A stretch of 11,252 nt of DNA from Fidelibacterota bacterium (GTDB taxonomy: Bacteria > Fidelibacterota > Marinisomatia > Marinisomatales > S15-B10), in NCBI GenBank assembly GCA_046861655.1, contig JBHIAI010000053.1:1-11252 (forward strand). Reading direction: 5' to 3'. How positions within the stretch are numbered: the first letter of the stretch is position 1; every line of letters begins with the position of its first letter. The translations under genes and the position numbers were made by a program. Below the pieces are notes generated by a model, which saw nothing but the letters and a program-made list of their open reading frames with translations, was not told the origin of the DNA and did not search any database. Below, in pieces: positions 1 through 11,186 of this stretch.

Positions 1-661
1 AGAACTCCTTCCTGGTATACCCATACAGGTGTAAGGCCGACCTGTTCACCTCTACGCATTCCCTGGTAGTGGCATCGAAGACTACTGCCGCAACGTTGAT
101 TCCGTCGAAGACCTCCCGGTACCATTCTGAGGATCGCTTCGAATCCTGCAGGGTCTCCTTCAGTTTCTGATTCTCAGTCTCCAATTGAACGGTGCGGTTC
201 TCCAACTTCTGGACCAAGGTTTCGTTGTATTTCTGGTAAAAGATCTCCTCTTCCGAAGCCTGGCTTATGGAAACTGAAGATCTTCTGGAAACAAGACCGT
301 CAATCGTGGCCAGGAGCTTCTCTCTTTCCAGGGGTTTACGCAAATAGGAATCTGCTCCAACATCCTTTCCCAGCTGTTCGTCCTCTTTGTCAACGTAGGA
401 CGCCGAATACAGGATAACAGGGGTGAACTGAACCCTTCGGTCCAACCTGATTTCGCGACATAACTGGAATCCGTCCATCACAGGCATCAGAATGTCTGAA
501 AGGACAAGATCAGGTTTTTCTTTGATCGCTGATTCAAGGGCGGCTTTGCCATTGTCGGCCGTCATGACATCATACCCTTCCTTTTCCAGGATCATTGAAA
601 CGTATTTCAGCATTTGTGGGTCATCGTCCACGATGAGGATTTCCACCGGTTTTTCATTCAT
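1..661 (-). CDS. Response regulator receiver (REC) + coiled coil + PAS protein, 3'-truncated at window edge
   Basis: Not in the ORF track (no stop inside the window). Manual translation from ATG at 661: MNEKPVEILIVDDDPQMLKYV...KPDLVLSDILMPVMDGFQLCREIR...VILYSAS...GADSYLRKP (intact DD, phospho-acceptor D, S and KP of REC), then helical YQKYNETLVQKLENRTVQLE and a PAS start (YREVFDGINVAAVVFD...VEVNRSALHLYGYTRKEF). Frame is open for 220 codons. Confidence 0.93.
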   Translation of the reverse strand, partial: MNEKPVEILIVDDDPQMLKYVSMILEKEGYDVMTADNGKAALESAIKEKPDLVLSDILMPVMDGFQLCREIRLDRRVQFTPVILYSASYVDKEDEQLGKDVGADSYLRKPLEREKLLATIDGLVSRRSSVSISQASEEEIFYQKYNETLVQKLENRTVQLETENQKLKETLQDSKRSSEWYREVFDGINVAAVVFDATTRECVEVNRSALHLYGYTRKEF

Positions 662-3361: not shown

Positions 3362-3679
3362 ATGCTTTTCCACGCAACAATGATGCATACTGAGGACAAC
3401 TGTCCTGGGTACGAGCGTGAGAGGATGCCCGAGGTACTCAGTGCCTTCGAGAATCTCGAATCGCTTGCCAAAGATCTGAGCGTAAAGCTCCATTCCTTTG
3501 TTTGGTGTCCCCCTGACCATGTAGCCTACGTTCTCATCGAGGCTGACGCCCTCAATGTTGTATCCCGTTTTCTTTTTTCAATTCCCATTCGTCAGGAGAT
3601 GAGAATAGTTCCTGTGGAGCCAATACAAGACACTATTGCCATGGGAAAGGCGATGATGGCTGAAGCACAAGGGCGCTAA
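3362..3679 (+). CDS. Small hypothetical protein with H-x4-CP and C-x3-H motifs, probably dimeric alpha+beta barrel (GYD/DUF3303-like)
   Basis: 105 aa, SD AAGGAG 8 nt upstream. Pattern MLFHATMMHTEDNCP...VKLHSFVWCPPDHVAYVLIEAD...EMRIVPV recalls ferredoxin-like barrel proteins. The family assignment is from memory. Confidence 0.75.
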   Translation: MLFHATMMHTEDNCPGYERERMPEVLSAFENLESLAKDLSVKLHSFVWCPPDHVAYVLIEADALNVVSRFLFSIPIRQEMRIVPVEPIQDTIAMGKAMMAEAQGR

Positions 3680-3718: not shown

Positions 3719-4174
3719 ATGGCAAATGTCGACGTTGTCAGAGAGATACTTCGTCTGGTAGAATCAGGCAAATACGAGGACGCGGGAAACCTGCTGTCCG
3801 ACGGTTTTACCTTTAGCGGTGCCGTTCCGGAGCCTGTGAGTGGGAAGGAATGGCTCGGCTTGCACCGGAAACTGAAGGAAGCCTTTCCGGACTTTTCCTT
3901 TAATGTGAGTGAAATCGAGGAAACAGAGGGGCGGGTGCGTGCCACCATTCAGATCACAGGGACGCATAAGAACGATCTTGACCTATCCGCTATGGGTATC
4001 CCCACGGTGGGGGCCACTGGAAGGTCTGTCAAACTGCCGGTGGAACACCCTGAGTTTGGTGTGGAAGGGGGGAAGGCGACGTCCCTGCACGTCGCGGATG
4101 CGGGACCGGAAGGAGGGGTAGCCGGAATCTTGAAGCAGCTTGGTGTCCAGGAGCCACCTCCGGCCCAGGAGTAA
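3719..4174 (+). CDS. SnoaL-like / ester cyclase (NTF2-fold) protein
   Basis: 151 aa, SD AGGAG 8 nt upstream. Typical motifs AFPDFSFNV, ITGTHKNDL, IPTVGATGRSVKL, GILKQLGV. Confidence 0.88.
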   Translation: MANVDVVREILRLVESGKYEDAGNLLSDGFTFSGAVPEPVSGKEWLGLHRKLKEAFPDFSFNVSEIEETEGRVRATIQITGTHKNDLDLSAMGIPTVGATGRSVKLPVEHPEFGVEGGKATSLHVADAGPEGGVAGILKQLGVQEPPPAQE

Positions 4175-4393: not shown

Positions 4394-5914
4394 CTAGCGA
4401 AGCTTCTGTTTTGTCTTCATCACGACCTGGGCGTAGGACACATCGAGAGCCTTGGCGATCCTGGTCTTGTTGTTCTGGTATTTGGTCACAAGGTACGAAA
4501 AAAGGTCCTCCTCAAACTTCTTATTCGCCTCCTTCCACTTGAGCGGAATCAAATACCTCAGGTAGTGCTCAAAATGGGGATTGTCGATCACAACGGGCTT
4601 TCTGGCCTCGCCCCTCTTCAATCCCAGTTTCTTCTGGTAAAGAAAATAGGTCCGGGTGTCGATGTCCAGTTGCCTGCACATTTGAGGGGCATTCTTCGTT
4701 CTCTCCAGGTGAAGGTTGAGCAGACTGGTATGAAAGATCCTCCGGATTTCCCTCAGGGTCTTATCCATGGCAAAGCCAAACACTTCCTCCTGAACGTCCA
4801 CCCGGGGGATCTTCTGGTTCCTCCCCAGGAATTCCACGTAAAAGGCCAGCAGTTTTTCCCTGTACCCCACCAACGGCAGCCCAATCTGTACTTCCTTCAT
4901 CAGTTCGGCGTACCCGGCTGAATAGAAGTGGTCCGCGAGACCCACGTCTCCGAGTTTTTCGTGGCACAGTCCCAGCTTGAAATAATCCTCAAAGGCCATG
5001 TCCCGCATTTCATACCGGGTGGTGAGCTGCAGGGACTGGATGTGATAATCGACAGCCTTCCGGTATCTCTTGGACTCAAACTCCAGGTATCCAAGGTTCT
5101 GCAGGGCAAGACTCATATTGTACACAGGGAGATCATCCAGGATGAGTTCCTTGAACAGGGATCTCGCTCTGTCAAGCTCGCCTTTCTTAACCCATACCCA
5201 TCCCAGGTCATTGGTGGCAGAGATCTGATGTTTGGTCAGACCGTACTCACTGGCGATATCCAGTGCCTCATTCAGGTATTCTTCCGCCTTGTCCAGGTCA
5301 TTCATATGGATTAAGATGGAAGCCCTATGCCTCAATATCATTCCCACACGGAAATACTCCCCTGTGGACCTGTAGTGGTTCTCGCACTCTGTTAATAGCT
5401 TCAGGGCGGACTCAGGAGATGTACCTTTCTGGGAAAGTCCGACATAGGTCTGAATGCGCCATCTAAGTTTCTCGTTTTTTGTCAGGTTTGCGGCTGCGTG
5501 AAGAAGGGACAGCGACTCTCTCACATATCCCAACTTGCGGAAGAGATCGGAGACTTCGGCATACGCATAGGCCCTGGCATCGGCGGATAGATTCTTTTCA
5601 AGAGCCAGGCTGAAGGCCGTGAATGCCTTCTGATAGTTTCCGTTGAAGGTATGGTGGTATCCCAAACAGGCCCAGGCGATGCCTCTCTGGTCGGGCGAAT
5701 CCAGTTCAAAGATCCCCGACAGGTCATCGATGGCACCCTCCGGCGTCACAAGATTGAGTCGATAGACGTCCTCCGTTTTTTCCAGGTAGTCGTCGATCGA
5801 AACCTTGGAGATCAATTCCTTTTGGGATGGACCGTCCCCCAGTACCGGGAATAGACTGAGGACCTCAAGAGGCACCAGGTTGCCAGGTGCTTCGTTATCC
5901 TTTGATTTATTCAT
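4394..5914 (-). CDS. TPR-repeat transcriptional regulator with two C-terminal Fis-like HTH domains
   Basis: 506 aa, SD AGGAGG 5 nt upstream. TPR-like helical repeats over aa ~78-340 (AWACLGYHHTFNGNYQKAFTAFSLAL; ATNDLGWVWVKKGELDRARSLF; ALQNLGYLEFESKRYRKAVDYHIQSL; DYFKLGLCHEKLGD). Fis-like segments at aa ~386-432 and ~459-503. Confidence 0.85.
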   Translation of the reverse strand: MNKSKDNEAPGNLVPLEVLSLFPVLGDGPSQKELISKVSIDDYLEKTEDVYRLNLVTPEGAIDDLSGIFELDSPDQRGIAWACLGYHHTFNGNYQKAFTAFSLALEKNLSADARAYAYAEVSDLFRKLGYVRESLSLLHAAANLTKNEKLRWRIQTYVGLSQKGTSPESALKLLTECENHYRSTGEYFRVGMILRHRASILIHMNDLDKAEEYLNEALDIASEYGLTKHQISATNDLGWVWVKKGELDRARSLFKELILDDLPVYNMSLALQNLGYLEFESKRYRKAVDYHIQSLQLTTRYEMRDMAFEDYFKLGLCHEKLGDVGLADHFYSAGYAELMKEVQIGLPLVGYREKLLAFYVEFLGRNQKIPRVDVQEEVFGFAMDKTLREIRRIFHTSLLNLHLERTKNAPQMCRQLDIDTRTYFLYQKKLGLKRGEARKPVVIDNPHFEHYLRYLIPLKWKEANKKFEEDLFSYLVTKYQNNKTRIAKALDVSYAQVVMKTKQKLR

Positions 5915-6276
5915 TGTCTCCTCCTGAAATCAGGCGAAAATATACGAATCGATGGACTTTTCATAGAAAAAAAATGCAGAAGAATCATCTAAATAACAAG
6001 AACAAAACGTGAACTCCTTCTGATGTTTGATTGATTGTGAAAGACAAGCAGGTCCTCCCAGGCTGAACCGCTCCCGATTTGCGCACACATTTCCCGTCCC
6101 TGCCCCAGCGTTCTCTTAGCTGTGGCAGAGCCTCTCCAGATAGCGGCTGGCCGTGGATTCAGCTAGGCGATTCTGGCCAGAACCCGGGCATGGTCATCAC
6201 ACACGCGGCCAGCGTGGCGATGAAACTACCTTTTTTCGTCAGTACCCGACATCGATGTCTCTTCCAGGCGACGGGA

Positions 6277-6489
6277 TTAACTATTCTGGTCCGTCCCAGA
6301 CGAATTCTGGTCTGTGCCAGAGGAGTTCTGGTCCGTGCCAGACGAATTCTGGTCTGTGCCCGAGGAATTCTGGTCCGTGCCAGAGCCAATTTCTTCCATT
6401 GGATCGCTCGAGAGCGGGTTAACGAAATCGCTGCATCCGACTATTCCGATGAAGAATAGTCCCAGTGCAAGGATGAGTCTAGCTTTCAT
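6277..6489 (-). CDS. 70-aa lipoprotein / repeat-peptide precursor with 5 x SGTDQNS
   Basis: SD AGGAGG 5 nt upstream of ATG 6489 (the ORF-track start 6552 coincides with the predicted -35). MKARLILALGLFFIGIVG-C is an SPII-type signal with lipobox IVG|C19, followed by SDFVNPLSSDPMEEIG and (SGTDQNS)5-stop. Repeat differences are all synonymous in this frame. Confidence 0.9.
   Translation of the reverse strand: MKARLILALGLFFIGIVGCSDFVNPLSSDPMEEIGSGTDQNSSGTDQNSSGTDQNSSGTDQNSSGTDQNS
6280..6384 (-). repeat. Coding tandem repeat, 5 x 21 bp
   Basis: Minus-strand units: tct ggc acg gac cag aat tcc / tcg ggc aca gac cag aat tcg / tct ggc acg gac cag aac tcc / tct ggc aca gac cag aat tcg / tct ggg acg gac cag aat agt. 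Confidence 0.98.
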
Positions 6490-6523
6490 GATGCCCTCCT
6501 TTTCGTTTTCTGTTGGACACCGA

Positions 6524-6552
6524 ATTATACCAAAAGAGGCGAACAAGGACAA
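6524..6552 (-). promoter_or_regulatory. Sigma70-type promoter of the repeat-lipoprotein gene
   Basis: Minus strand TTGTCC (6552-6547), 17 nt spacer, TATAAT (6529-6524), with extended -10 TGn. The -10 ends 34 nt upstream of the ATG. Confidence 0.75.
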
Positions 6553-6564
6553 GAATATCCTACA
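6543..6564 (-). promoter_or_regulatory. Putative operator, copy 1 of a 22-nt motif
   Basis: TGTAGGATATTCTTGTCCTTGT on minus; 18/22 identical to the plus-strand copy at 6674-6695; overlaps the -35 element. Confidence 0.5.
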
Positions 6565-6673
6565 AGAGTTACTGCTTTTGGCTGCCGATCGTTGAAAAAT
6601 ATGCTTGATTTCGAATGGCGGCTTCGGTAAAATGTGGTGGCGTCCTCGGGTAAGGGGTCCATCTCGCGGCAGG

Positions 6674-6695
6674 TATAGGATGTACTCGTCCTTGT
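6674..6695 (+). promoter_or_regulatory. Putative operator, copy 2 of a 22-nt motif
   Basis: TATAGGATGTACTCGTCCTTGT upstream of the kinase gene at 6742. It overlaps a possible TTGTCG-N16-CATACT promoter (6692-6719). Confidence 0.5.
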
Positions 6696-6741
6696 CGTTT
6701 GGGACGTTCTAAGCATACTGGGTTAGTGAGGGGTGTGAGAC

Positions 6742-8337
6742 GTGAGTCAGACAGAATCAAAGAGGGACAACCTGAGGAAATCCCTGTGGGAGTTCATCCT
6801 CGACCGATCCCCGGAAGCGATATACGTTCTCGCTCCCGATGGAGGGATCGTGGATGCTAATCAGGGTTGTTCGGACATGCTCGGATATTCCCGGAAGGAG
6901 CTCTTGGCCATGACGGTGTTTGACATCCACGCTGGTTTTTCCTGGAAAGACTGGACGAGGCGGTGGAAAACGCTGAAGGAGCGGGGGACGGGTGTGGTGG
7001 AAACGGAGCACAGGACGAAGGAGGGTGATTTGGTTTCCGTTGAGGTCATGGGCAATTATTTCACCTCCAACGGGAAGGAGTTCAACTGCGCGTTCGCCCG
7101 GGAGATCACGGGACGGAAAAAGGCGGAGACAAAGATCCGGTCGCATGCGGAGAGATTGGCGGCTCTCCACGAGGCGAGCGAAGCCCTGGTGACGTCCCTG
7201 GAGTTTTCTCCCGTTGCGGACAAGTGCGCGAGAATCGCCAAGGATCTCCTGAAAGCGGATGGAGCGGTGATTTTCCTGAAAAAACCCCGGGGAAAGTATC
7301 TCGAACCCATCGTTTCCAGGGGGTCCTATGGGAGTGAAGTCCTCTCCATGAGGCTGAGACTGGGGGAAGGTGTGTCGGGGAGGGTGGCCGTCTCCGGAAA
7401 AAGTGAGATCATCAATAGAGTAGACCTTACGGATAACGGTAAGCAGGTTCCCGGCACTCCGGTTGAACCTGAATCGCTGCTTTCGGCGCCTCTCAAGGTC
7501 AAGACAAAGGTCACAGGCGTGATCACTCTGGACCGCCTGGGCGAACGGAAATTCTCTGAAGACGACCTGTCGTTCCTGGAAGACCTTGCCAACATCTGTG
7601 CGGCGGCCATCGAGAACGCCAGGGCTTATGACCAGGCCCGGAAAGAGATCGAGGACCGCAAACAGGCCCAGGAGAACCTGAAACGATCGGAAGAGGAGCT
7701 TCACAGGCTGACTGCTCACCTCCAGAAAGCCAGGGAACAGGAGCGGATCGAAATCGCACGAAAGCTTCAGGATAACCTGGGCCAAGCCATAGCCGATGTG
7801 AAAAGGCATCTGGAGTCGTTGAAAAAGGAATTTCCCCGGCGGGGGAAACTGGTTCAGAAGATAAACGCCTCGTTGAAAACGATGGATGACTCCAGCCAGA
7901 CATTGCTCGGGATTTCAAGGGAATTGAGACCTGTGGAGCTGGAGGAGGTGGGCCTTACGGAAGCCATCAAATCGCAGACGGAACAGTTTCAGGATCGATC
8001 GGGCGTTCTCTGCAAACTTACCACAGATTCCCGGCTGGATTCCCTGGATGCGGACCGGTGCAGCGACATTTTCTGGGTGGTGCAGGAAGCCCTGTCAAAT
8101 GTGGCCCGCCACGCGAATGCCACCAGCGTTGAGGTAGACCTGAAGAGGGAGAAAGGTGACTTGCGGCTCTCGGTGAAGGACGACGGCAAAGGGATCAGTG
8201 AGGAGGAATTGTGGGACCCAACGGCATCGGGAATCCTGGCCATGAGGCAGAGGATGTATCCGTGGGGAGGGAGATTCAGGATTCATGGCCGGAAAGGGAA
8301 GGGGACCAGGGTAGAGGTCATTCTGCCGCTTGAGTAA
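6742..8337 (+). CDS. PAS-GAF-HisKA_3-HATPase kinase-like protein lacking the phospho-accepting His
   Basis: 531 aa, GTG start with GAGGGG upstream. PAS aa ~15-125, GAF ~140-295, H-box reads ERIEIARKLQDNLGQ, N-box QEALSNVARHA, G1 DDGKG, G2 region SGILAMRQR. Confidence 0.92.
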   Translation: MSQTESKRDNLRKSLWEFILDRSPEAIYVLAPDGGIVDANQGCSDMLGYSRKELLAMTVFDIHAGFSWKDWTRRWKTLKERGTGVVETEHRTKEGDLVSVEVMGNYFTSNGKEFNCAFAREITGRKKAETKIRSHAERLAALHEASEALVTSLEFSPVADKCARIAKDLLKADGAVIFLKKPRGKYLEPIVSRGSYGSEVLSMRLRLGEGVSGRVAVSGKSEIINRVDLTDNGKQVPGTPVEPESLLSAPLKVKTKVTGVITLDRLGERKFSEDDLSFLEDLANICAAAIENARAYDQARKEIEDRKQAQENLKRSEEELHRLTAHLQKAREQERIEIARKLQDNLGQAIADVKRHLESLKKEFPRRGKLVQKINASLKTMDDSSQTLLGISRELRPVELEEVGLTEAIKSQTEQFQDRSGVLCKLTTDSRLDSLDADRCSDIFWVVQEALSNVARHANATSVEVDLKREKGDLRLSVKDDGKGISEEELWDPTASGILAMRQRMYPWGGRFRIHGRKGKGTRVEVILPLE

Positions 8338-8531: not shown

Positions 8532-11186
8532 TTGTCAAGATTGGGCAAGAAATTCTTGAAAGATAAACAGAAATCCAGGGATCAGCTTGCCCGGGAATTG
8601 GAGGAATCACGCCGGCGGGTTGCTGAGCTGGAAACCCGTGCGTCCGGGCAGGAAAAAGCGGAGCAGAGCCTGCTCAAGAGCGAGGAAAGATTCCGGGCCA
8701 CCCTGGACAGTATGATGGAAGGGTGCCAGATCATCGGACGTGACTGGCGTTACCTGTATGTCAACGACGCTGTGGCGACCCACGGCCGTAAGAAGAAGGA
8801 AGAACTCCTGGGCCGTACCATGATGGAAGCGTATCCGGGTATCGAAGAGACGGAGATGTTCGGCTATCTCCGGCGGTGTATGGAGAAGCGGATTCCCTAC
8901 AGGATGGAAAACGAATTTGTCTTTGCCGACGGAAGCAAGGGGTGGTTCGATCTAAGCGTTCAGCCTGTGCCCGAGGGCATATTGGTGCTTTCTTTGGACA
9001 TCACCGAACACAAAAAGTTGGAGGAGGCCATCCGTAAAAGAAGCGAGGATCTCGCCCTGGTCAATACCGTGAACGAGGCGATCAATCAGGGCCGGACTTT
9101 CCCGGAGGTGCTTACGCTGTTAGCGAAGGGAGTACGGAAGATCTTCTCCGGTTTGGGAGCGAGCGTGTACCTGTTCGATCCCGGTGGGCAACACCTTGAG
9201 TTGAAACAACTGTCAATGCCGCAGAAGGAACTCAGGAAGATCGAAACCTTGATCGGGCGGAAAACCCAGGGGTTGAAGATTCCTGTTGTCAAGGGAAGCC
9301 CCTTCAAGAAGGTGCTCGACTCCGGAGAACCCCAGGTTGTCAACGATCCGGAAACCGTTCGAAAACGGATGGAGGAATTCGTGATCGATGTGGCGGAGCC
9401 GGGGGCCAAGACTCGCAAGGCAATCCAGGAAGTAATCCCACAGATTTGCAGAAACCTGAATATCCACTCAGCGGTTCGTCTGCCTCTTATTTCAGGGGCA
9501 GAGGCCATGGGCATCATGGACATATCGCGATCCGAGCCTTTTGGCGAATCAGACCTGCGCAGACTCAAGTTCATTTCAGAAGGATTGACATTGGCCATCA
9601 GGCGGAAACAGCTGACTGATGAACTGGCGGAATCGCAGAAACAGTACCGGGACCTTGTGGAGAACGCCCTCATCGGCATCTATAAGACCAGCCTGGCGGG
9701 CGACATCCTGTACGTGAACGACGCCGTCGTCGAGATGCTGGAGTTCGAGTCTGCCGAGCAACTGATGTCACAGGGGGCCGTCGTCCGGTATAAGAATCCT
9801 GAGGACAGGGAAGTCTTGATCCAGAATCTCAAACAGCACGGCTCCGTGGTCGGTCATGAAGTGGAGTTGCTTACCCGGACGGGCAAAACAAAACATGTCC
9901 TGCTCAGCGGGACTCTGGTCGGGGAATTCCTGTCGGGAATGATCATGGACATTACGGAACGAAAAAAGGCGGAAAAGGAACTGGCTTCCCGCATCTCACG
10001 GATGGAGGCCCTGCATGAAGCCACGCGGAGTCTGGCCGCTTCCCAGGATTTGCAGGAGGTACTGGACCTGTGCGCCTCGCTGGCTGTCGATTTGATCGGA
10101 GCTACCGGGGCCGTGATCTTCCTGAAGGAAAAGAGAGGGAGGAAAAAAATTCTGACGCCCGTGACCGCCCGGGGTCCTTACGGACAGGATATCATGTCTA
10201 TGACCCTGGAGCTTGGCGAAGGCATTTCTGGACGAGTGGCCGCCGCGGGGAAGAGCCAGTTGGTCAACAGGGTGGACCTGACGGACCGGGGAAGGCTTGT
10301 CCCGGGTACCCCCCTGGAACCCGAGTCCCTGATGTCGGCTCCCCTGAAATTCGAGAAGAAGGTCACGGGGGTTATTACCGTGAGCCGGCTGGGAGATCGC
10401 ACATTTTCAGAGAACGACCTTTCGTTTCTGGAGACTCTCGCCTACATTTCGGCTGCCGCCATCGAGAACAGCCGGCTTTTCGCTCTGACTCAGAAGGAAA
10501 TCGACGAAAGGAAGAACACGGAAGCGGAACTCCGGAGGCTTTCCCGGCATATTTTTCAGGCCAGGGAACAGGAAAGGGTTGAAGTGGCCCGGGAACTGCA
10601 CGACGATCTGGGACAAGTCCTGACGGCCATCAAGATGGACCTGGTTTCCACCGCGAAAAACCTCCCTGAACAGAAAAGTGCTCTAACCCAGCGGATCGAA
10701 AGGTCGCTGAAGACCATCGAAGCCGGCCTCTCCAGCGTTCGAAGGATATCGAAAGAGTTGAGACCGCCGCTGCTCGACGAGGCCGGACTCGCCGCGGCCA
10801 TTGAGTGGCAGGTTGAAGACTTTCAGAATCGGTTTGGGGTTGAGAGTGAACTTCTCATACACACGGATATTGATCATCTTGACCGCGATCGATCCATCAC
10901 TGTTTTTCGCATCGTTCAGGAGGCCCTGAATAACGTAGGTCGACACGCGAATGCATCAAGAATAGAAATTGTCGTCTGGAAGGAAAACAGTCACCTGCGA
11001 CTTGAGATCAAGGATAACGGCAAGGGGATCGCCCAGGAGGAAATCGGCAAGATCGATTCCTTCGGCATCGTTGGCATGAAGGAAAGGGTTCATCCCTTCG
11101 GAGGCGACCTGGAGGTTACGGGACAGGAGGGGATTGGGACGGTGGTCGCCGCCCGTATTCCCCTTGCGAGAAAGAGAAGAAAATGA
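8532..11186 (+). CDS. Soluble PAS-GAF-PAS-GAF HisKA_3 (NarX/UhpB-class) sensor histidine kinase
   Basis: 884 aa. Two PAS domains ending DITEHKK and DITERKK, two GAF domains, H-box VARELHDDLGQ, N-box QEALNNVGRHA, DNGKG, FGIVGMKER. Start uncertain (TTG at 8532, 8541 or 8556). Confidence 0.94.
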   Translation: MSRLGKKFLKDKQKSRDQLARELEESRRRVAELETRASGQEKAEQSLLKSEERFRATLDSMMEGCQIIGRDWRYLYVNDAVATHGRKKKEELLGRTMMEAYPGIEETEMFGYLRRCMEKRIPYRMENEFVFADGSKGWFDLSVQPVPEGILVLSLDITEHKKLEEAIRKRSEDLALVNTVNEAINQGRTFPEVLTLLAKGVRKIFSGLGASVYLFDPGGQHLELKQLSMPQKELRKIETLIGRKTQGLKIPVVKGSPFKKVLDSGEPQVVNDPETVRKRMEEFVIDVAEPGAKTRKAIQEVIPQICRNLNIHSAVRLPLISGAEAMGIMDISRSEPFGESDLRRLKFISEGLTLAIRRKQLTDELAESQKQYRDLVENALIGIYKTSLAGDILYVNDAVVEMLEFESAEQLMSQGAVVRYKNPEDREVLIQNLKQHGSVVGHEVELLTRTGKTKHVLLSGTLVGEFLSGMIMDITERKKAEKELASRISRMEALHEATRSLAASQDLQEVLDLCASLAVDLIGATGAVIFLKEKRGRKKILTPVTARGPYGQDIMSMTLELGEGISGRVAAAGKSQLVNRVDLTDRGRLVPGTPLEPESLMSAPLKFEKKVTGVITVSRLGDRTFSENDLSFLETLAYISAAAIENSRLFALTQKEIDERKNTEAELRRLSRHIFQAREQERVEVARELHDDLGQVLTAIKMDLVSTAKNLPEQKSALTQRIERSLKTIEAGLSSVRRISKELRPPLLDEAGLAAAIEWQVEDFQNRFGVESELLIHTDIDHLDRDRSITVFRIVQEALNNVGRHANASRIEIVVWKENSHLRLEIKDNGKGIAQEEIGKIDSFGIVGMKERVHPFGGDLEVTGQEGIGTVVAARIPLARKRRK

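Follow-up and report, generated by a model that had tools for sequence, protein, structure and literature searches.

Encoded peptide signals that are read in the cytoplasm by TPR proteins have so far been regarded as a trait of the Bacillota. The closest described systems are those of the RRNPP(A) family. In the available portions of the relevant reports, this family was confined to Firmicutes among 13,513 genomes and propeptides with lipoprotein signals were a minority of 211 out of 2,734 (PMC9765709), and some of its precursors carry repeated copies, from 1 to 4 (PMC11343458). A search procedure for such systems, as far as the accessible text of PMC10075063 describes it, calls for an exported propeptide of 10–100 amino acids and an adjacent gene for a receptor of 250–500 amino acids with TPRs, and drops clusters in which the TPRs are N-terminal.

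Here we analyze a locus from Marinimicrobia, a marine phylum that is abundant and has almost no cultured members. It lies in a window of 11,252 nucleotides (the whole stretch of DNA that we studied) from a Fidelibacterota bacterium (GCA_046861655.1, contig JBHIAI010000053.1). Set beside the values in the accessible text of PMC10075063, the propeptide has 70 amino acids (other members of its family reach 200), the receptor has 506 and its two paralogs in the same genome 499–500, at the upper limit for size, and the two genes are adjacent in the window. The locus probably represents cell-to-cell peptide signaling, of a kind so far described for Gram-positives, in a Gram-negative marine lineage. 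Among the top matches of a literature search that took in few subscription journals and no supplements, no paper dealt with this family or described an RRNPP-like system of Marinimicrobia.

A Gene for a Putative Lipoprotein Precursor

The propeptide gene (6277..6489, minus strand), homologs of which adjoin a receptor gene, encodes a lipoprotein signal, a short linker, and five heptapeptides. Its ATG is located 5 nt downstream of a ribosome binding site that is evident in the sequence (AAGGAGG, 6495..6501, minus strand). Because of this site, and because the starts of homologs agree with it, we take the ATG at 6489 as the start codon; an upstream TTG (6552) was ruled out on the same grounds. 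The signal peptide (6433..6489, minus strand) exhibits a basic N-terminus, a hydrophobic core, and a terminal lipobox, IVG-C, a pattern that is an established marker of lipoprotein signals, and the precursor is predicted to be lipid-anchored via Cys19. This cysteine, Pro25, and Ser27 are invariant in all 17 short lipoprotein forms of the family, which also includes 52-residue forms that lack the lipobox cysteine. Upstream of the gene is a σ70-type promoter (TTGTCC, 17 nt, TG-TATAAT; 6524..6552, minus strand) that is conserved in homologs: all 10 upstream regions aligned share the TTG of the −35 element and the A..T of the −10 element. The propeptide had no Pfam or PHROG match and nothing meaningful in NCBIfam, a search of the window against Rfam gave no match, no convincing terminator hairpin follows the stop codon (z 0.76), and there was no RNA dataset among the runs listed as containing the window.

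The divergent promoter region also holds two AGGA-N8-TCCT palindromes (6546–6561 and 6677–6692, spanning 6546..6692), a possible operator of local standing only. Two such sequences compare with 0.35 expected and were matched in 7 of 200 shuffles, the count being post hoc. One overlies the −35 element of the propeptide promoter, the other precedes a kinase gene, and both are found inside a 20-nt inverted pair. As an operator of the whole family the motif is rejected for now, as only 15 of 203 loci match it (three of these being the window's own) and it was not seen at the aligned propeptide promoters of relatives.

Synonymous Divergence within the Repeat Array

The C-terminal half of the propeptide is an array of five head-to-tail SGTDQNS units (6280..6384, minus strand), recognized by TRF and by codon reading, and this unit is the candidate mature signal peptide. 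Units 1 to 5, each of 21 bp, occupy 6384–6364, 6363–6343, 6342–6322, 6321–6301, and 6300–6280 and encode the same seven residues. An earlier note, made from the letters alone, had claimed that the units diverge only at synonymous sites and that the open reading frame stops at a unit boundary. Both claims stand: six codons vary, none of them non-synonymously, and the TAA codon (6279–6277) directly abuts unit 5. The variation falls at codon positions 1, 2, 3, 6, and 7, just as the note gave it, including the TCC/TCG/AGT serine switch. Of the 63 single-base changes that a unit can undergo, only 15 are synonymous, which gives a probability of ~8e-4 for five independent synonymous single-base changes, with the AGT switch left out. 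The proposed duplication of a 42-bp dimer likewise fits, in that units 1 and 3, and units 2 and 4, are one base apart, whereas the neighbors 1/2, 2/3, and 3/4 differ by 3–4 bases; TRF, which reported 4.9 copies at period 21, matched 93% at period 42 versus 85% at period 21. The repeat does fix strand and frame, each of the other five frames having residue changes between units.

This pattern extends to the family. Within 12 scored arrays, two of them close kin, in which synonymous sites make up a fraction of 0.24, we counted 45 synonymous versus 9 non-synonymous variants. A single false "unit" at one locus (L040) accounts for four of the latter; without it the count, worked out by hand, is 44 versus 5, a ratio of ~0.04 per site. 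Comparison of orthologs did not turn up S/G/T/D/N tails that drift without a unit. We conclude that the SGTDQNS peptide is under selection. The view of the note that the exact peptide appears selected holds within a genome; between genomes and paralogs the sequence varies, and what is general is the seven-residue frame SG-x-x-x-N-x only.

The runs that contain the window are vent metagenomes, all from one study. An assembled contig from run X1, which may be the source sample, covers 5098–6700 with zero differences from the window. In another contig, from run X4 and at a depth of 4.5, a base change at 6377, which may be an error, alters a residue of unit 1. A further record of run X1 (record 5), compared with 6380–6502 of the window, comes from a relative of the propeptide that has another unit and was present in the same vent sample.

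A TPR Protein with a Predicted DNA-Binding Domain

The next gene after the propeptide gene, on the same strand (4394..5914, minus strand, reading from 5914 to 4394), encodes the candidate receptor of 506 residues. Pfam TPR matches, fold searches, and a structure model (pLDDT 88.9) agree on a TPR superhelix (approximately residues 41–372), which is followed by a C-terminal helical domain. Profile comparisons indicate that this domain harbors a Fis/NtrC-type HTH: HTH_8 matched 33 of 68 C-terminal domains of the family (best E 1.2e-12), its match to the window's own receptor being weak (E 0.0077), and the domain also matched the NtrC DNA-binding domain with an E of 8e-4. The secondary structure of the model suggests two HTH-like units. 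No signal peptide was seen in the receptor. Asn273 is invariant across the core receptor alignment; in RRNPP receptors, asparagines of the TPRs hold the peptide backbone. The receptor matches one PHROG, of unknown function, through its TPR part only. At one locus (L048; G017:C45:15535-15780, 20335-20514), two short pieces that match only the C-terminal HTH region lie among genes for large secreted proteins, downstream of a full receptor gene.

Pairing of Receptor and Propeptide Genes

Named homologs of the receptor are assigned to Marinimicrobia/Fidelibacterota or the "FCB group," except for one labeled Planctomycetia and one labeled Bacteroidetes. As a single-protein query the receptor matched 30 of 61 relatives, the source genome included; a core receptor profile matched 30 of the 233 genomes of the order, and a wide profile 95 of the 301 genomes of the phylum.

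The source genome has three receptor copies, each with its own exported protein upstream. The tails of these three cassettes are SGTDQNS in five copies, SGTNENE in two copies, and SGFNEN at the end of a 166-residue lipoprotein, and SG-type tails terminate 8 of the 610 signal-like open reading frames of this genome. More broadly, 32 of 56 distinct full-length core receptors adjoin, as scored by script, an exported protein that ends in an SG-x-x-x-N-x-like unit. The other 24 comprise 16 on contigs too short to judge, four apparent orphans, and four that are probably paired, with an array 4.2 kb upstream in one case, an array at one end of a different contig from that genome in a second, and neighboring lipoprotein genes with masked stretches in the remaining two. 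A set of 37 distant receptors divides into 15 accompanied by a lipoprotein with a Gly/acid tail and 22 whose available flanks contain no such gene. The propeptide gene may lie upstream in tandem, upstream beyond one gene for a 940-residue protein, or downstream and convergent. Two propeptide profiles matched 21 of 30 receptor-positive and 0 of 31 receptor-negative genomes, with the proviso that both were built from receptor-adjacent genes and that kin genomes are not independent.

A midpoint-rooted FastTree tree separates the receptors into three clades: orphans, partners of long lipoproteins with Gly/acid tails, and an SG clade. With this root the long forms are the deepest branches of the SG clade, and the basal propeptide forms are lipoproteins of 165–200 residues. 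The tail would then have been retained while the folded lipoprotein domain was lost, a direction that hangs on the root.

Receptors of the orphan clade (L027, L152, L161, L165, L167, L171, and L173) have no adjoining propeptide within ~1.5 kb; downstream on the same strand are genes for large secreted proteins, several with acidic, cysteine-containing repeats. These may be orphan receptors or ones that respond to another ligand. Members of the Gly/acid clade (L030, L041, L153–L157, L164, L170, L172, L174, L175, L177, and L181) are paired with lipoproteins of ~175 residues (379 in L153) that belong to no Pfam family and have tails such as GEGGEIG and GDGGENG. Within one family, divergent pairs of receptor genes ~1.3 kb apart occur at G126:C10, G079:C15, G068:C81, G119:C35, and others. 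Finally, the ESM Atlas contains clusters of ~500-residue TPR proteins (feature score 0.94–0.96), several with HTH_8, that are commonest in Acidobacteriota and may be a parallel family.

Apparent Covariation between Peptide and Receptor

Over the 32 pairs the terminal unit has the consensus S-G-x-[NSG]-[ESQD]-N-[GEDS], and a propeptide carries from 1 to 10 copies. Units are uniform inside an array and differ between genomes and paralogs (SGPSQNG, SGVSENG, SGTSSNG, SGANQNE, SGGYENG, and others). Where the peptide ends in G, S, or T, receptor residue 72 is Asp in 19 of 21 pairs; where it ends in D or E, in 0 of 11 (r −0.87, against a shuffled maximum of 0.73 in 30 shuffles, four traits having been tried). 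Reduction to independent pairs leaves four, of which on average 3.4 are concordant and 0 discordant (p 0.25). Five of five held-out pairs, related to those of the first set, obeyed the rule, and the two six-residue tails are both paired with Asp at this position. We regard the apparent tracking of the last peptide residue by residue 72 as a lead. Peptide positions 4, 5, and 6 gave covariation inside or near the shuffled range.

A Secreted Protein That Accompanies Tandem Arrays

Array-bearing loci other than those of G000 and G001 have, between or beside the propeptide and receptor genes, a gene for a secreted protein of ~940 residues that combines two motifs, HExxH and W-F-x-E-G, with a TolB-like propeller and a barrel-like end (L182 1303–4248 [G000:C167], L076 814–3636, and L204 4715–7504). 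In the source genome this gene is unlinked to the cassette. Orthologs occur in 12 of 233 genomes, 11 of them receptor-positive; in the twelfth (G314) a six-unit array adjoins the HExxH gene and the contig stops at the expected receptor site. Tandem units are present in 10 of the 12, and in the other two (G018 and G031) the contig breaks off at the site. Conversely, the protein was not found in 12 genomes with single-copy propeptides (G027, G028, G033, G034, G038, G046, G050, G052, G057, G187, G228, and G353). There is a possible counter-case: metagenome contigs L101, L107, and L108 carry tandem units, and the genome of their clade (G028) is without the protein. Weaker HExxH/propeller paralogs coexist in the same genome, and one ortholog group tracks the tandem arrays. 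The HExxH/propeller protein, presumably of the outer membrane, is a candidate for the enzyme that processes the arrays.

Import and Neighboring Genes

Searches for Opp (PF00496) found none in 11 of the 30 receptor-positive genomes, including the source genome, all 11 being incomplete, and PTR2 was not found in the source genome. An OPT transporter is present in the source genome and in 55 of 61 genomes, so that a candidate route of import exists. A receiver-only gene (PF00072) follows 18 of 47 receptor genes; none follows the window's receptor gene. Two genes for PAS-GAF-HisKA_3 kinases (6742–8337 and 8532–11186, plus strand) diverge from the propeptide promoter, and further down are genes encoding a PAS kinase and a response regulator (747–1952 and 2–661, minus strand). 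These neighboring signaling genes are possible targets of the receptor; in the gene maps of relatives examined they are not kept as neighbors. A DUF3303-like (weak) and a SnoaL-like gene (3362–3679 and 3719–4174, plus strand) converge on the receptor gene.

A Proposed Mechanism and Its Alternatives

We favor, with some reserve, an RRNPP-like propeptide/receptor system. What the analysis establishes is the gene, the selection on its unit, the pairing of genes throughout the family, and the domains present; the steps that follow are inferred. The 70-residue precursor would be exported and anchored through the lipid on Cys19; a protease would cleave ahead of each Ser-Gly, each precursor thereby giving rise to at most five SGTDQNS heptapeptides; and the heptapeptide would be imported, perhaps via an OPT-family transporter, and would bind the groove of the neighboring cytoplasmic TPR protein. 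The bound receptor might then alter its DNA binding through the C-terminal HTH and perhaps contact a stand-alone receiver. Signal yield would depend on copy number and specificity on unit sequence; the source genome, with its three paralogous cassettes, would then use three codes. A more elaborate account can be advanced only tentatively: Gram-negative peptide quorum sensing that evolved independently as a lipoprotein tail became an anchored heptapeptide polyprotein, with the HExxH/propeller/barrel protein as its peptidase and a TPR-Fis receptor whose code lies partly in residue 72.

If the proposal is correct, diderms manage such signaling across two membranes, with signal, receptor, and candidate protease named, and a widespread class of HExxH/propeller outer-membrane proteins gains its first substrate. 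Such systems would also supply new peptide-responsive regulators for synthetic biology. The claim is testable without culture, and the three natural cognate pairs of one genome could serve as mutual controls.

The alternative that survives best, which we nonetheless consider unlikely, is a cell-autonomous checkpoint on the envelope or on export, in which the TPR protein reads the tail of unexported precursor or a heptapeptide clipped in the periplasm is re-imported by the same cell. A lipid anchor in a diderm envelope, the 11 of 30 genomes in which Opp was not found, the 165–200-residue lipoproteins at the base of the family, and the presence of C-terminus readers such as APPBP2 among the top fold matches are all in its favor. 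Units that are uniform within arrays yet differ between paralogs and close genomes, however, look like private codes rather than a housekeeping sensor, the 52-residue forms have no lipobox cysteine, and internal copies would have no free C-terminus unless cleaved.

We give a much smaller chance to the idea that the array is a scaffold for modification, as tandem N-x-S sequons or as RiPP cores, with the TPR protein helping. In most arrays Asn6 and the Ser of the following unit do form N-x-S (D-Q-N-S-S across the junction), and there is a weak match to the RiPP TPR protein HaaT (E 1e-5, far below the cut-off). But STT3/PglB was not found in any of the six array-bearing genomes searched (92–99% complete), Asn6 is retained in single-copy tails, where a sequon is impossible, no modifying enzyme was seen among the window's genes or beside the cassette in the gene maps of relatives examined, and the partner protein has an HTH. 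Equally improbable is that the tail serves the HExxH/propeller/barrel protein as a sorting tag or substrate, with the TPR-HTH gene encoding a regulator that is only inherited along with it and does not bind the tail: the proximity of the HExxH gene to both others is what one would expect, but the dozen single-copy genomes in which this protein was not found retain that tail next to the receptor, and residue 72 of the receptor tracks it. The least credible reading, a small ordinary lipoprotein with a slippage-expanded flexible tail next to a TPR gene by chance synteny, accords with the low-complexity S/G/N/D composition and the range of copy numbers but is largely refuted by the excess of synonymous variants, by a fixed seven-residue phase that ends at the stop codon, and by a linkage that persists over three gene layouts with no propeptide match in the receptor-negative genomes.

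Comparison with Known Systems

The 940-residue protein shares a TolB-like propeller with the WD40-Omp85 proteins in the part of PMC4104836 available, the passages of which mention no role in peptide maturation, and it resembles Atlas clusters in which 13–44% of members have Omp85. It differs in its additional N-terminal HExxH...W-F-x-E-G motif set. For import, a parallel is Qsp1-Opt1 of Cryptococcus, where, according to the accessible text of PMC7537855, a secreted peptide is taken up via an OPT-family transporter and acts inside the cell; that system is fungal and its receptor unrelated, and use of OPT in Marinimicrobia is a guess. Contact with a receiver is an analogy to Rap-Spo0F and NprR-Spo0F, drawn from the receiver-only genes that follow some receptors of the family, though not that of the window.

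The nearest likeness is to the RRNPP(A) systems of Bacillota (Rap-Phr, NprR-NprX, PlcR-PapR, and AimR-AimP), with which the cassette shares a small exported propeptide gene adjoining a TPR gene, a short C-terminal unit, and several paralogous codes per genome. In contrast to RRNPP(A), a lipobox is the rule here, copies number up to 10, precursors extend to 200 residues, and Opp is often not found; and whereas RRNPP(A) belongs to Bacillota or their mobile elements, viral contigs yielded no relative here. The TPR fold of the receptor resembles that of Rap and NprR in fold searches, but no more closely than it does LGN or APPBP2. The order of domains is reversed, with TPRs N-terminal and an apparent Fis/NtrC-type HTH C-terminal in place of an N-terminal HTH or three-helix bundle, and the host belongs to a phylum that is Gram-negative according to the available part of PMC11652737. 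Because of this domain order, the type of HTH, the Gram-negative host, and a fold match no closer to Rap, the Marinimicrobia cassette is not a member of RRNPP(A) and is best described as RRNPP-like.
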